From a virus, in the IMG/VR virus record IMGVR_UViG_3300020202_000060, positions 1-12,542 of that record: a stretch of 12,542 nt of DNA; one strand, 5' to 3'. The number at the start of each line of letters is the position of its first letter. The stretch's first letter is position 1. The notes under the pieces were generated by a model. The model had not been told where the DNA came from and ran no database searches. It was given only the letters and a program-made list of their open reading frames with translations. Below, one piece after another: positions 7,921 to 12,542 of the stretch. Both the position numbers and the translations under genes were made by a program.

Positions 7921-7952
7921 AGTAAACCCCCATTAGAAGAATAGAAGGAAAA

Positions 7953-7993
7953 CGCCCGAACCGGGAATCGGACCCGGGTCTCCTGCGCGACAG
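7953..7993 (-). other. 3' half of a tRNA-Asp(GUC) gene (anticodon loop to discriminator); candidate attP core
   Basis: The minus strand reads CTGTCGC (loop, anticodon GTC, T33, G37, C38) - GCAGG - AGAC (4-nt variable) - CCGGG TCCGATT CCCGG (T arm) - TTCGGGC - G73. The five bases 5' of the loop (GCCCC) do not pair with GCAGG, so the tRNA similarity stops at the anticodon loop. There is no 5' half and no CCA. Confidence 0.6.
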
Positions 7994-7999
7994 GGGGCA

Positions 8000-8161
8000 T
8001 CATAGATATCTCCCCGGAGCAAGCTTGCCCTTTTTGATTAGTCTTTCAACAATACACTTTGCTATCTCTTTTCTTGAACTATTATCTTCATCTCTTGCTA
8101 ATAGTTTCAAAGCTTTATTGACTTTTATTGGTATAGCAGTCTCCACCCTTACTTTTTTCAT
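8000..8161 (-). CDS. RHH (CopG/Arc/MetJ-like) transcription regulator, 53 aa (not in the ORF track)
   Basis: MKKVRVETAIPIKVNKALKLLARDEDNSSRKEIAKCIVERLIKKGKLAPGRYL shows a clear beta-strand/helix/helix pattern. It is divergent from the integrase, and a TATA box lies 22 nt upstream of its ATG. Confidence 0.7.
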   Translation of the reverse strand: MKKVRVETAIPIKVNKALKLLARDEDNSSRKEIAKCIVERLIKKGKLAPGRYL

Positions 8162-8182
8162 GTCACATTTAACAAAGTGATC

Positions 8183-8190
8183 TATTTAAA
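8183..8190 (-). promoter_or_regulatory. TATA box TTTAAATA (minus strand) for the RHH/leftward operon; leaderless geometry
   Basis: The 3' edge of the box is 22 nt from the ATG at 8161, and no SD lies between them. Confidence 0.55.
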
Positions 8191-8224
8191 TGTTGTGGTG
8201 ATCTACCGGTATGTTACCGTAACC

Positions 8225-8232
8225 TTTATATA
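8225..8232 (+). promoter_or_regulatory. TATA box TTTATATA for the integrase; leaderless geometry
   Basis: The 3' edge of the box is 22 nt from the ATG at 8254, and no SD lies between them. Confidence 0.55.
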
Positions 8233-8253
8233 GTCTCCCTCTAGTGAATTATT

Positions 8254-8901
8254 ATGAGTAAGAAAGCCAAGATTGAGAAAAGGCATCTAACTGCTCAAGA
8301 TATCGACGATATATGCAGGACTATACGCACAAGTCGCAGATATTTACCTAACAGAGCAGGAGAGTTTATGAGAGCAAGAGATCAGACAATAATTAAGTTA
8401 TGCAGTCTCTGTGCTCTACGCCCTAGTGAAGCATTGATGTTAAAATGGTCTGATATTGATTTTGATAATAAGCTGATTAATATAGAAGCAGGAACTAATA
8501 AAGAGAATCAGGGCAATAACGCCTTGCTTATTCCTCAAGCATTAGAGATATTATATGAGTATAAACAAGTCTATGATCAATATTTAGCAGCCGAGTTCTT
8601 ATTCCCCTCATTAGTTAGTTTCGAGCCATTAACATTATCTGCATTTGATAAGATATTTCTAAAGATTCAGAAAGAAGCAGGATTGTATAAGGTCCTATGG
8701 TATACTTCAGCAGGTCAACCAATATCATCACACACACCATATGATTTGAGAAAGCACGCTGGTACTAGGTTTTATAGGCATACAAGAGATCCATACAAGA
8801 CAATGAGATTCTTAAGACAAAAGAAGATGACTTCAATAATACCTTATTTACATAGTGAGATCACAGATATTTACACAGACGCAGCACTTGCTTTCTCTTA
8901 A
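8254..8901 (+). CDS. int: Tyrosine recombinase / integrase (short, 215 aa)
   Basis: Box I-like ALRPSEALMLKWSDIDF (Arg). Box II-like HTPYDLRKHAGTRFY (..LR.H). C-terminal IIPYLH supplies the candidate catalytic Tyr. It lies next to a tRNA-fragment attP candidate. Confidence 0.8.
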   Translation: MSKKAKIEKRHLTAQDIDDICRTIRTSRRYLPNRAGEFMRARDQTIIKLCSLCALRPSEALMLKWSDIDFDNKLINIEAGTNKENQGNNALLIPQALEILYEYKQVYDQYLAAEFLFPSLVSFEPLTLSAFDKIFLKIQKEAGLYKVLWYTSAGQPISSHTPYDLRKHAGTRFYRHTRDPYKTMRFLRQKKMTSIIPYLHSEITDIYTDAALAFS

Positions 8902-8934
8902 TGTGTGTGTGCGTGTGTGTGTGCGTGTGTGTGT
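8901..8934. repeat. 34-nt perfectly alternating purine-pyrimidine tract, (GT)n interrupted by two GC
   Basis: ATGTGTGTGTGCGTGTGTGTGTGCGTGTGTGTGT begins at the last base of the integrase stop codon. Confidence 0.9.
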
Positions 8935-9018
8935 CACATTTTTCCCCCCTAAGAACCCCCCTTTCCATGGGAAATATAAGCACCTTGTGCTATACCTATA
9001 TTTCCTATAGAACCTTAA

Positions 9019-9038
9019 CTTACCTACCCTTACCTACC
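9019..9038. repeat. Tandem 10-bp repeat CTTACCTACC x2 within a C-rich, G-poor stretch
   Basis: Read directly. Confidence 0.85.
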
Positions 9039-9054
9039 TTGTCTTACTACACTA

Positions 9055-9072
9055 ACACACACATACACACAC
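9055..9072. repeat. 18-nt alternating tract ACACACACATACACACAC, an imperfect inverted partner of the 8901-8934 (GT) tract
   Basis: Its reverse complement is GT-rich, and the two tracts bracket about 120 bp. Confidence 0.85.
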
Positions 9073-9211
9073 TCACTTGATCGGAGTTCAGATATTTACG
9101 TACACCTATGCAGTCCTTGCCTGCTAATGGGTTTTGTGTATATCACCGCTTCGTTCGCTTCGCTCACTCCGCTAACGTCCCCCCCCGTCGTAGCTTGAAA
9201 AGCTCGTATAG

Positions 9212-9238
9212 CTAAGTTAATACCTTGTATTAACTTAG
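9212..9238. repeat. Perfect 11-bp inverted repeat CTAAGTTAATA-ccttg-TATTAACTTAG
   Basis: Arms at 9212-9222 and 9228-9238 are exact reverse complements. Candidate operator or hairpin. Confidence 0.85.
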
Positions 9239-9426
9239 GATAGTAGCGTTCAACGTACGTACGTAGTGTAGTTAGCATAGTAATCTAAAGAACGAAGCCG
9301 TAAGGCTGAGTTAGTTAGTAGTAATAGCATAGTACGTATGTAGTGCAACACGTCAACGTGGGGCAATATAACGTCATTTAGAGCGATAGTTGAAGCGTTT
9401 GTACTTTTCTTGGGTTATCTCAGCAG

Positions 9427-9474
9427 AAAAATTTTTATTATTTTTTATTTTTAAAAAAAAGAAAAAAATATATA
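9427..9474 (+). promoter_or_regulatory. 48-nt block that is A/T apart from one G, ending in the TATA box AAATATATA (9466-9474)
   Basis: The box 3' edge is 22 nt from the ATG at 9496. The block could also act as a DNA-unwinding element. Confidence 0.55.
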
Positions 9475-9684
9475 GTGTATCATCTTTACTACCCTATGAG
9501 CTTAAGCGATAAGATTGAAATTTCCCTTTCAGATTCCTATAATAATCGACTAAAGGTTGAAGATGTTAAAGAAGCTGTAAATGAATTGAAAGAGAAAGTT
9601 AGTTTATTTGAAAACCTCAACGGTGGACAAATGGTTCTAAGATGGATAGACGAAATATTCGGAGATAAACTAAGTGGAAGTTGA
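9475..9684 (+). CDS. Small acidic hypothetical protein; true start probably the ATG at 9496 (62 aa)
   Basis: The track start at 9475 is a GTG inside the promoter. MSLSDKIEISL... begins at 9496 in leaderless geometry. It is the first gene of the terminase operon; a small-terminase role is only a positional guess. Confidence 0.6.
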   Translation: MYHLYYPMSLSDKIEISLSDSYNNRLKVEDVKEAVNELKEKVSLFENLNGGQMVLRWIDEIFGDKLSGS

Positions 9685-9859
9685 AGATTTAGGTATTAAG
9701 GTAGTCTCTAAGGATGAAGCCTTATGGACAGAAGTTAAGGAAGCAGCAGAGAAAGAACTAGAATCTATTGAAGATAACTATTTCAGAACAAAGACATTCC
9801 AAACAGCAATTAGGGAACTATGTATAAACAAACTTGCAGAGATTAGTAATGATAAGTGA
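9674..9859 (+). CDS. Small acidic helical hypothetical protein (61 aa)
   Basis: GTG start overlapping the upstream ORF, followed by a double stop TGATGA. No motif recognised. Confidence 0.5.
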   Translation: MEVEDLGIKVVSKDEALWTEVKEAAEKELESIEDNYFRTKTFQTAIRELCINKLAEISNDK

Positions 9860-9945
9860 TGACGAACATAGACAGACAATGCATTGTTTAGAAGTAGCAT
9901 TAAGACAAATTAATAGTGAAGTTAGTTGGATAAGGCAGTTACTAG

Positions 9946-11298
9946 TTGATTTCTTGGAGAAGAATGATAGTCCTAGATGATTGGCAAAAAGAAGTTTTGA
10001 GTTATGATAAAGATCTTCTATTGTGCACTGGCCGTAGAGTTGGTAAGACGTACATACTAGCGAGAAAGGCGTGCGAAGAGATGGTGAATAAACCCAATAC
10101 GCCAGTCATTGTTGTATCATTAACCGAAGATCAAGCGCAACTGATTATTTCTATGGCTCTTAATTACTTACAAGATCATTACCCGAAGATGATTGCAAAG
10201 GGGCAGAACAAACCAACACAGAAAACCATCACACTAACAAACAAGTCGAAGATGATATCGCGCCCTGTTGGAAATACTGGAGATGGAGCGAGAGGATTTG
10301 AAGGAGGAATCTTGATAGTGGATGAGGCTTCCAGAATGCCCCGTTCGTTTTGGATTGCTGGAAAGCCTGTACTGCTAACGACAAACGGACGCATATGGAT
10401 GGCATCAACACCGTTTGGAAAGCAGGGTTACTTCTGGGAGAGATTCGACGAAGCATATAACAAGAAGAGTCCTAGTGCGAGATTCAAAGTATTCTATATA
10501 TCAACAGAGGAAGTAATGAAGAACAGACCAATAAGTGATAGTTGGACGGAGGAACAGAGAGAGGGAGCATTGAGAATACTTGATGAAGATCGAAAGGAGA
10601 TGTCGGAGATCGAATACGGACAAGAGTATCTCGGATTGTTCCTAGACGAGTTAAGACAGTTCTTCCCTGATGAATTAATTGACAAGTGTTGTATACTACA
10701 GAGAAACCCTAATATGACGGGTGATAAGTTCTTAGGGGTTGACATTGCGAGAATGGGAGATGATGAGAGTACGTTTGAAGTTATTAACAAGCTAGATGGG
10801 AAATACTATCATGTAGAATCGCAGATAACAAAGAAGACATATACAACGCAGACAGAGCAGAAGATCATAGAGCTTGATAAGATGTGGAACTTTGTTAAGA
10901 TTGGAATTGACGCGGGGTCTGGATCGCTAGGAGTTGGCATATACGATCATCTGTTACAATCAAACATTAAGAGAAAAATTGAAGCTATGAACAACAGAGC
11001 AATAGCACAGGACAGAGATGGAAAGAAGAAAGTGACTTTACAGAAAGAAGATTACTATGATAACTTACGAGGTATGATGGAACGTGGAGAGATCAAGCTA
11101 TTAGATGATGATAATGTCAAGGCCAGTCTTAGATCTGTACAGTGGGAGTTTACTAATACAGAGGAAGATGTGCAAGAAGGAAAGATCTCTAAAGTGAGGA
11201 TATTTGGTAAGTATACCCACGTAGCCGAAGGTATAATCAGAGCTGCATGGCTTGCGAGAAAAGCGAAGAATTTAAATTTCCAGATATATTACGTATAA
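9946..11298 (+). CDS. terL: Terminase large subunit
   Basis: Walker A-like CTGRRVGKTY, Walker B ILIVDEAS, coupling motif MASTP, and nuclease-domain acidic motifs GVDIARMGDDESTF and IGIDAGSGS. The track start is TTG; the ATG at 9964 (MIVLDDWQKEVL) with GGAGA upstream is more likely. Confidence 0.85.
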   Translation: MISWRRMIVLDDWQKEVLSYDKDLLLCTGRRVGKTYILARKACEEMVNKPNTPVIVVSLTEDQAQLIISMALNYLQDHYPKMIAKGQNKPTQKTITLTNKSKMISRPVGNTGDGARGFEGGILIVDEASRMPRSFWIAGKPVLLTTNGRIWMASTPFGKQGYFWERFDEAYNKKSPSARFKVFYISTEEVMKNRPISDSWTEEQREGALRILDEDRKEMSEIEYGQEYLGLFLDELRQFFPDELIDKCCILQRNPNMTGDKFLGVDIARMGDDESTFEVINKLDGKYYHVESQITKKTYTTQTEQKIIELDKMWNFVKIGIDAGSGSLGVGIYDHLLQSNIKRKIEAMNNRAIAQDRDGKKKVTLQKEDYYDNLRGMMERGEIKLLDDDNVKASLRSVQWEFTNTEEDVQEGKISKVRIFGKYTHVAEGIIRAAWLARKAKNLNFQIYYV

Positions 11299-11811: not shown

Positions 11812-12422
11812 TGGCACTCCAAACAAAGTTTAGGCGATCACCTGAAAAGGCCATAGCCTCTTATTCTTATTTTGATATTGCAGAAGGTAGCGGCTTAATT
11901 GAGTTTCTCCCATTTCTAACAACTAGTGATGGCAGTAATCTAAGCGGAGCCATGACAATTAATACAAGTGTATATGGTGCAAGTTCAGGGGCAGCAAACT
12001 TAACAGCAACTAACAAAGACTTTGATGTAGTTTTCAACTTACCTAAGATTATAGAGGGAAATGCATTTTGTATAACTCCGATAAGGATCCAAGGAACCGG
12101 AAACGGCAAGGTTTATGCAACTATTAAACACGTGGATTTAAACGGAGTTGAAACAACAATCGGAGCACAAGCTACATCCGAATCTGTGATTGGTGGCGGT
12201 GGCGGTGTTAGTGCTGATAAAAAAGTAATCACAAAGTTCACGATTGCAAGAAAGAAATTTAAGAAAGGAGAGAAGTTAAGACTTAATCTTTCAGGAGCTT
12301 CAAGCGGAAGTGTGGAGAAAGCAGATATTGGACTATCACCAGTTAATACTCAATTATCGACGGTATTTGCAACTAATGGGAGCAGATCAAGCCTATTTAT
12401 CCCATTCAGAAACGAGATATAA
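11811..12422 (+). CDS. Hypothetical beta-rich virion protein (203 aa)
   Basis: TAATG overlap with the upstream ORF. Ser/Thr/Gly/Asn-rich beta-type composition with a GGGGG linker. It ends inside the terminal repeat and is followed by the T5-containing tandem repeats. Confidence 0.6.
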   Translation: MALQTKFRRSPEKAIASYSYFDIAEGSGLIEFLPFLTTSDGSNLSGAMTINTSVYGASSGAANLTATNKDFDVVFNLPKIIEGNAFCITPIRIQGTGNGKVYATIKHVDLNGVETTIGAQATSESVIGGGGGVSADKKVITKFTIARKKFKKGEKLRLNLSGASSGSVEKADIGLSPVNTQLSTVFATNGSRSSLFIPFRNEI

Positions 12423-12542
12423 TTAAACGAACCCTTTTTAAATGGGCATTAAAACGAACCCTTTTTAAACCCCCTCCTTCACTTGGATAAAATATAAATA
12501 CGCTACTAGTTTCTTAGCATCGCTTAAAGGTTTTAAGCGTAA
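12416..12542. repeat. Terminal direct repeat, right copy (identical to 1-127)
   Basis: Same 127-nt string as 1-127. The stop codon of the 203-aa ORF (12420-12422) lies inside it. Confidence 0.95.

Follow-up and report, generated by a model that had tools for sequence, protein, structure and literature searches.

Attachment sites in tRNA genes were reportedly classified by Williams in 2002, with the anticodon loop as one of the sublocations distinguished. Split tRNA genes exist in Nanoarchaeota. The attP of SSV1 is 44 bp long and matches the 3' end of tRNA-Arg (PMC3293823). In systems of the SSV type, the attP is found inside the integrase reading frame, and integration splits the integrase gene; in systems of the pNOB8 type, the integrase gene stays intact and is found next to the rebuilt tRNA (PMC3293823). 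Sugahara et al. described in 2012 the fragments of tRNA genes, and the introns, that mobile elements leave behind in archaea; their paper also relays that introns have been proposed to shield tRNA genes from integration and reports that mismatches between attP and attB are inherited (PMC3293823).

The locus considered here, in a virus genome that encodes its own tyrosine recombinase, carries a block of 44 nt that is probably an attP. It resembles SSV1 in having a tRNA-derived attP of 44 bp in an archaeal virus. It differs from the SSV type in that the block is found 261 nt outside the integrase reading frame and on the other strand, in agreement with the earlier note on this DNA, which had placed the site outside the integrase gene in a layout that is not of the SSV type. 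An attP outside an intact integrase gene is also the arrangement of the pNOB8 type, a likeness of layout; it differs in that the integrase gene of the virus is divergent from the tRNA piece and a small open reading frame is positioned between the two.

The window, i.e. the whole stretch of 12,542 nt that was analysed (IMGVR_UViG_3300020202_000060), is the complete genome of a small virus. Positions 1-127 are identical to positions 12416-12542 (blastn), and this exact terminal repeat of 127 nt indicates a circular genome of 12,415 bp. The gene products include a portal protein, an HK97-type capsid protein, a large terminase and the 215-aa tyrosine recombinase, referred to as int215 (open reading frame list, Pfam and PHROG). 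The identical genome is present in four independent samples, each time as a contig of ~12.4-12.6 kb or as a fragment thereof. Given the circular genome and the same assembly in four samples, the tRNA-like block is no assembly artefact. Inside the terminal repeat, AAACGAACCCTTTTTAAA is found twice (10-27 and 36-53), 26 nt apart, and has a promoter-like look. The features of the region of interest are as follows.

7944..7952, minus strand: T-rich tract TTTTCCTTC after G73, matching the T-run behind real tRNA-Asp genes
7950..7993, minus strand: 44-nt block identical to a chromosomal site of Candidatus Woesearchaeota, proposed attP core (blastn)
7953..7993, minus strand: tRNA-Asp(GUC) positions 32-73 (Rfam alignment; 40/41 identity to the L004 gene; ARAGORN on a chimera)
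7971, minus strand: position 55 of the T loop, a C here as against a T in complete tRNA-Asp genes
8000..8161, minus strand: 53-aa open reading frame, putative small DNA-binding regulator or excision factor (open reading frame list; its stop is 7 nt before the block)
8162..8253, no strand: divergent control region between the small open reading frame and the integrase gene (read from the sequence)
8254..8901, plus strand: int215, 215-aa tyrosine recombinase, catalytic domain only (Pfam, PHROG)

The minus strand of 7953-7993 consists, in this order, of the anticodon loop with the GTC anticodon (CTGTCGC), the 3' strand of the anticodon stem (GCAGG), a variable region of 4 nt (AGAC), a T arm of 5 bp (CCGGG TCCGATT CCCGG), the 3' acceptor strand (TTCGGGC) and G73 (G), directly followed by TTTT at 7949-7952. 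When Rfam model RF00005 is applied to 7945-7993 alone, the alignment pairs 7953-7993 with positions 31-71 of the 71 in the model and identifies a tRNA that is truncated at its 5' end (19.8 bits, E 0.016); ARAGORN calls no tRNA in the whole window, as expected for a half. The five bases that precede the half, GCCCC (7994-7998), do not pair with GCAGG. The 41-mer is found once in the window and none of 200 shuffles matches it even at 3 mismatches, so that the resemblance to a tRNA is not by chance. The G+C content of the matched part is 73%, and in 200-nt windows it is 0.44-0.46 at the island versus 0.34-0.38 nearby. The earlier description, in which a GC-rich island represents a tRNA-Asp(GUC) 3' half lacking the 5' partner of its anticodon stem, is confirmed on each of these points.

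The metagenomes were scanned with the first 33 nt of the half, accepting T or C at position 55, and the five loci that were found are all complete tRNA-Asp(GTC) genes. The closest one (L004 5082-5153) is on a 45-kb groundwater contig from Hainich, the same contig as that of locus L019 discussed below. It is identical to the window at 40 of the 41 positions, the sole difference being a T at position 55, and it also has C31 and the downstream TTTT in common with the window; the tRNA-Asp gene that the earlier note had proposed to look for in other genomes does therefore exist. A chimera of positions 1-31 of this gene and the 41-mer of the window is predicted to form a cloverleaf of 72 nt, which is identified by ARAGORN as tRNA-Asp(gtc). 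The closest complete tRNA-Asp genes have either TTTAAAA boxes ~30 nt upstream or an intron at 37/38, both of which are archaeal traits. In IMG/VR, scans with the 41-mer, with the 22-mer of the T arm having C55 and with a degenerate 33-mer gave no match. Three of the metagenome contigs (L002, L003 and L005) have 13-24 tRNA genes within ~3 kb, and these arrays include a tRNA-Asp whose anticodon and T arms are equal to those of the block.

The integrase gene adjoining the block is intact. The int215 sequence matches PF00589 (1e-17; Pfam) and the PHROG integrase family (7.5e-22), and its best NCBIfam match is archaeal XerA (4.7e-12, under the cut-off of that family). The tyrosine-recombinase catalytic set Arg-Lys-(His/Tyr)xxArg-...-Tyr is present: in the alignment of 20 family members, R56, R166 and Y198 are invariant and K83 and Y163 are nearly invariant. 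The family is sparse, with 135 representatives, mostly of ~215 aa, in 1.84 billion proteins, and its alignments are too divergent for a pattern search. A word-index protein search with int215 returned only int215 itself and no close relatives with known sites, the PDB sequence search returned nothing and the IMG/VR search returned no relatives. In the control region, the A/T boxes TATTTAAAT (8183-8191) and TTTATATA (8225-8232) are positioned ~21-30 nt from the respective start codons, and we infer that these are archaeal TATA boxes. The 53-aa open reading frame has no family in Pfam, PHROG or NCBIfam, and its AF2 single-sequence model (pLDDT 67) has two helices and is of low confidence. The earlier assignment of this neighbour as an RHH gene, made by eye only, was set aside in view of this model and the lack of a profile match. 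Directly 3' of the integrase stop, at 8902-9080, there is a (TG)n/(CA)n-rich tract of low complexity with inverted symmetry, which is possibly an origin or a packaging signal; a mir-466 match in this tract is spurious.

Three loci of int215 homologues on other elements were inspected. In two of these (L031 and L032, the integrases of which are 38-40% identical to int215), an Asp-like tRNA piece is found within ~400 nt, and near the third (L033) there is no tRNA-like piece. The piece in L031 is at 1-56 on the plus strand, where it runs off the contig end, has a G at position 55 and adjoins a 46-aa open reading frame and a 219-aa int215 homologue. This tRNA end may be an attL junction. The 46-aa frame is at the position equivalent to that of the 53-aa frame of the virus, and the two are not homologous.

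Five distinct relatives of the virus, mostly contigs of ~12 kb with capsid proteins 45-66% identical, have no integrase, and except for one unrelated element no tRNA-like T arm was found in them. The relatives lack both block and integrase, which indicates that these two travel together as an accessory module. The unrelated element is a tRNA-like mini-element of 61 nt in an IMG/VR relative (L023 2403-2473), with the acceptor GGCAGAG/CTCTGCT and the T arm GCAGG TTCGAAT CCTGC, on which ARAGORN makes no call. The search of INPHARED (50,697 deposited phage records) with the capsid protein (tblastn) gave no match. The contigs with the integrase or capsid of the virus are all free and of ~12 kb, a lone 35-kb contig being a larger virus; no integrated copy of the virus or its relatives was seen among them, which is weak evidence given the limited collections, and neither an attL/attR pair nor a provirus flanked by direct repeats was seen in the collections searched.

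A single exact match of the 41-mer exists in the genomes of 185,579 species (one genome each), in a metagenome-assembled genome (MAG) of Candidatus Woesearchaeota (760-kb contig CAZNJU010000001.1). The identity extends over 44 nt (window 7950-7993 and L001 2017-2060, 100%, 44/44; blastn), from tRNA position 32 up to and including the TTT. No 5' tRNA half precedes the match, which is therefore an orphan 3' half and not a tRNA gene. The complete tRNA-Asp of this MAG is 9.5 kb off on the other strand and is identical to the block at 31 of 41 positions, as compared with 41/41 for the orphan half. The orphan half lies upstream of a divergently oriented gene for a 383-aa tyrosine recombinase (int38x), at a distance of ~85 nt, and 3' of the half, on the same strand as the half, are a second integrase (399 aa as called; the longest open reading frame is 422 aa), MazE and a PIN protein. 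The position of the block between two recombinase genes, with the integrase-MazE-PIN island directly downstream, marks the site as a recombination hot spot. No significant similarity was detected between int215 and either int38x or the 399/422-aa integrase. A second direct copy of the block was not found downstream of the half, and a match of 14/16 within a methyltransferase gene, itself intact, was discarded as likely due to chance. The exact match, together with the archaeal traits of the closest complete tRNA-Asp genes, bears out the earlier view of the block as a host fingerprint, and on sequence grounds it supports a DPANN archaeon of the Woesearchaeota/Pacearchaeota type as the host. Elsewhere in the island of this MAG (L011 11161-12360, minus strand; 17328-18254, plus strand; 19765-20962), a Sigma70 region-2 protein, a reverse transcriptase, an MT-A70 methylase and a TrbC/T4SS-pilin are encoded, which are bacterial-type functions within a DPANN genome.

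Homologues of int38x number ~2,400; the best 120 are more than 54% identical, and those named among these 120 are from Pacearchaeota, Woesearchaeota or Nanoarchaeota. In IMG/VR, the search with the int38x alignment found no relatives. At four of the five distinct int38x loci that were inspected (L011, L019, L013-15, L016 and L017), an Asp-like 3' half is present at the same place, 85-90 nt upstream of int38x (L011 9876-9916, L019 ~9871-9911, L013 ~9876-9916 and L016 ~9876-9916, all on the minus strand); at the fifth (L017), a complete tRNA-Glu abuts int38x on the same strand. In the four loci with a half, a complete tRNA-Asp is found downstream of int38x, with 0 to ~9 genes between, and it is followed in three of the four by a methylase and T4SS-like genes. 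This tRNA-Asp is inverted relative to the half, a geometry at odds with simple integration. The halves are 80-95% identical to one another, as compared with 47-61% in the neighbouring 88-90 nt, and they are closer to one another than to their own local tRNA-Asp, which argues that they are under selection as such. In two genomes the tRNA-Asp has an intron of 22 nt at 37/38, inside the block, whereas the orphan half there is intron-less. These intron-bearing genes (L013 11200-11295 and L016 11928-12023) are miscalled by ARAGORN as tRNA-??? with 4-base anticodons. No orphan 5' half of tRNA-Asp is found within 10 kb in the four genomes. A conserved hairpin upstream of int38x was considered and not retained, its support being weak.

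The base at position 55 in the copies that were compared is as follows.

Virus window: C
Orphan halves L011, L019 and L013: C
L032, degenerate half close to an int215 homologue: C
L031, fuller Asp-like tRNA close to another int215 homologue: G
L016, orphan half: T
Complete tRNA-Asp genes, six of six: T

The C at 7971, which the earlier note had singled out as an oddity, is real but not singular, as it recurs in orphan halves. Five Asp-like halves that lack their 5' part have C55, next to integrases of two unrelated families, and a sixth Asp-like copy has G. Judged from these alignments, C55 is a recurrent mark common to integrase-associated copies of tRNA-Asp; the copies are possibly of common descent, in which case the occurrences of C55 are not independent samples. 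A palindrome was considered as the reason for C55, since GACCCGGGTC is a perfect 10-mer with C55, and was rejected because neither L031 nor L032 preserves it.

The best explanation of these observations as a whole, to which we give a probability of about 0.72, is that the block is the attP core of an integration module and that its partner is a block in the host chromosome, the orphan half being the likeliest one. The module would have three parts: the att core (7950-7993), the small open reading frame and the minimal 215-aa tyrosine integrase. The core would copy the part from 32 to 73 of a tRNA-Asp(GUC) of DPANN archaea, together with the three T's that follow. The integrase would pair the viral block with the identical block of the host chromosome and strand exchange would take place inside the block, probably at the anticodon-loop end, where the identity starts, such that the whole virus genome is inserted between two copies of the block. 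The likeliest partner would be the conserved, intron-less orphan 3' half of tRNA-Asp with C55, just upstream of the DPANN recombinase int38x, and a tRNA-Asp gene of the L004 type would be the alternative target. The match of the viral block is 40/41 with the L004 gene, 31/41 with the MAG's own tRNA-Asp and 41/41 plus TTT with the orphan half only. The orphan half is thus a better match (44/44, with C55) than any tRNA gene seen, and it is free of the intron that interrupts the block in the working gene of two genomes; the choice between the two turns on one mismatch and on the context. The tRNA identity, the exact chromosomal match, the integrase and the lack of the module in the relatives are observed directly, and recombination at the block, the position of the crossover and the site used are what we infer. 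The earlier proposal of a likely attP is supported by the adjacent integrase, by the exact match at a chromosomal recombination hot spot, by the absence of the block from the relatives and by the Asp-like pieces near two of the three int215 homologues inspected; an integrated copy was not found.

Like the sites in tRNA anticodon loops, the virus has a tyrosine integrase beside an attP that copies the anticodon loop to the 3' end plus a few bases, in a block of ~44 bp, and the proposed attP is close to the integrase gene on a free element (7950-7993 and 8254-8901, circular genome). Unlike at those sites, the sole exact partner is an orphan half, the virus copy has C55, the 215-aa integrase has the catalytic domain only and the integrated form was not found. 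The virus module would work like the classical tRNA-targeting modules, its membership of this class being incomplete in that a flanked provirus was not found and the exact partner is no tRNA gene. Two of the cellular loci are more like the pNOB8 type, as the tRNA-Glu of L017 precedes int38x, and the half of L011 precedes the 399-aa integrase, each pair being on the same strand. As in the cases of Sugahara et al., a recombinase gene is close both to a fragment of a tRNA and to a complete version of that tRNA, which in some cases has an intron; there, however, the fragment is a 5' fragment in direct orientation, whereas here the fragments are 3' halves, inverted, conserved across genomes and with C55 in common.

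It is possible, although we consider it clearly short of an even chance, that attB is instead the host's own working gene for tRNA-Asp(GUC), with a crossover in the anticodon loop and the viral 3' half keeping the tRNA intact. Such use of a tRNA gene is in agreement with the complete gene at 40/41 that shares C31 and TTTT, with the start of the identity at the anticodon loop, as at known anticodon-loop sites, with the predicted fold of the chimera and its identification as tRNA-Asp by ARAGORN, with the fuller Asp-like tRNA beside a homologous integrase in L031, and with the 44-bp attP of SSV1, which also matches a tRNA 3' end (PMC3293823). However, a crossover in the anticodon loop of an L004-type gene would leave a rebuilt gene that inherits C55, whereas T is present in 6/6 complete tRNA-Asp genes, and a provirus next to a tRNA-Asp was not found. 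The sole perfect genomic match is moreover an orphan half, in a genome whose working tRNA-Asp matches at 31/41, and the earlier claim that the virus restores the tRNA 3' half is unproven and called into question by these observations. The perfect chromosomal identity of 44 nt, compared with the 2-5 differences in the halves of other genomes, argues for ongoing matching and makes it improbable that the block is only the scar of a past recombination, kept for ending the transcription of the small open reading frame and having no integration role now. The integrase next to it is intact with conserved catalytic residues, shuffled sequences fold as well as the region does (z = -1.55), and a terminator has no need of an anticodon loop and a stem strand, which also speak against such a relic. 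It would account for the start of the block 7 nt past the stop codon, for the TTTT and for the integrated copies not being found, and the consensus scan lists the T-arm hairpin (7978-7955) with CGTTTTCCTT as terminator-like. A G+C-rich hairpin with a T-run right after a gene, as in intrinsic or T-tract terminators, is indeed present; this is compatible with an att role too, and the T-rich tract (7944-7952) is possibly a transcription stop for the upstream small gene.

We give little credence to the idea that the block is recognised by the 383-aa int38x of the host and that the virus exploits, or interferes with, a recombination system of the host or of an ICE: the virus has its own integrase, int215 and int38x have no detectable kinship beyond the fold, action of int38x on the half is conjecture only, and the inversion of the half relative to the nearby tRNA-Asp is a poor fit to simple integration. 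The observations that would suit it are the fixed distance of ~85-90 nt between half and int38x in four genomes, the conservation of the halves (80-95%) relative to the adjacent 88-90 nt (47-61%), and the junction sequences, which suggest a core for int38x like CCTGYCG. Every copy has a perfectly conserved T arm, and together with the split tRNA genes of Nanoarchaeota this could point to a functional RNA, either the 3' half of a split tRNA that is joined in trans to a 5' half of the host or a tRNA-like decoy. This is very improbable. Unlike in the split tRNA genes, a conserved leader that could pair with a 5' half is absent, and the copies have unrelated upstream sequences; the break at 31/32 is no known split site; an orphan 5' half is absent within 10 kb in the four genomes, where complete tRNA-Asp genes are already present; and C55 replaces the T that all the complete tRNA-Asp genes seen have there.

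Returning to the preferred reading, in which the block is an attP core with the orphan half as its likeliest partner, the role of the half in the cell can be approached only speculatively. It may be, though we regard it as rather unlikely, that in Woese- and Pacearchaeota the half with U55C beside a recombinase serves mobile elements as a dedicated landing pad or as a decoy attachment site. Sequence divergence, or the intron in the anticodon loop, would then shield the working tRNA-Asp, and the viral attP, C55 included, would have been matched to the decoy and not to the gene. Alternatively, the half could be the remnant of a tRNA-Asp that was split by a conjugative element carrying a replacement tRNA-Asp, which would make the host dependent on the element. 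The C55 halves, and the intron at the same place in the working gene, bear both on the reasons for splits and introns in archaeal tRNA genes and on whether safe integration sites are maintained by cells or by elements. The viral site itself is a tRNA-derived site of an ordinary kind with an unexpected, recurrent variant feature. To our knowledge, DPANN archaea have been linked with only a handful of viruses, hardly any of them temperate; the exact match of 44 nt provides a concrete, testable link to a Woesearchaeota host for one head-tail virus out of a large family with genomes of ~12 kb.

Two of the cellular loci have additional features. In L016, at 8608-11152 (the same as L022), two int38x paralogues of 383 and 392 aa are divergent from a single orphan half, and this pair is flanked on both sides by T4SS-type genes. 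In L019, on the minus strand of 9700-9900, the orphan half is followed by two more remnants of tRNA-Asp 3' ends, CGGTTCGGGCG and CCGCAGCGGGCG, of 11-12 nt each. These are ~60-80 nt apart, match two different types of tRNA-Asp and have the look of scars of repeated recombination.
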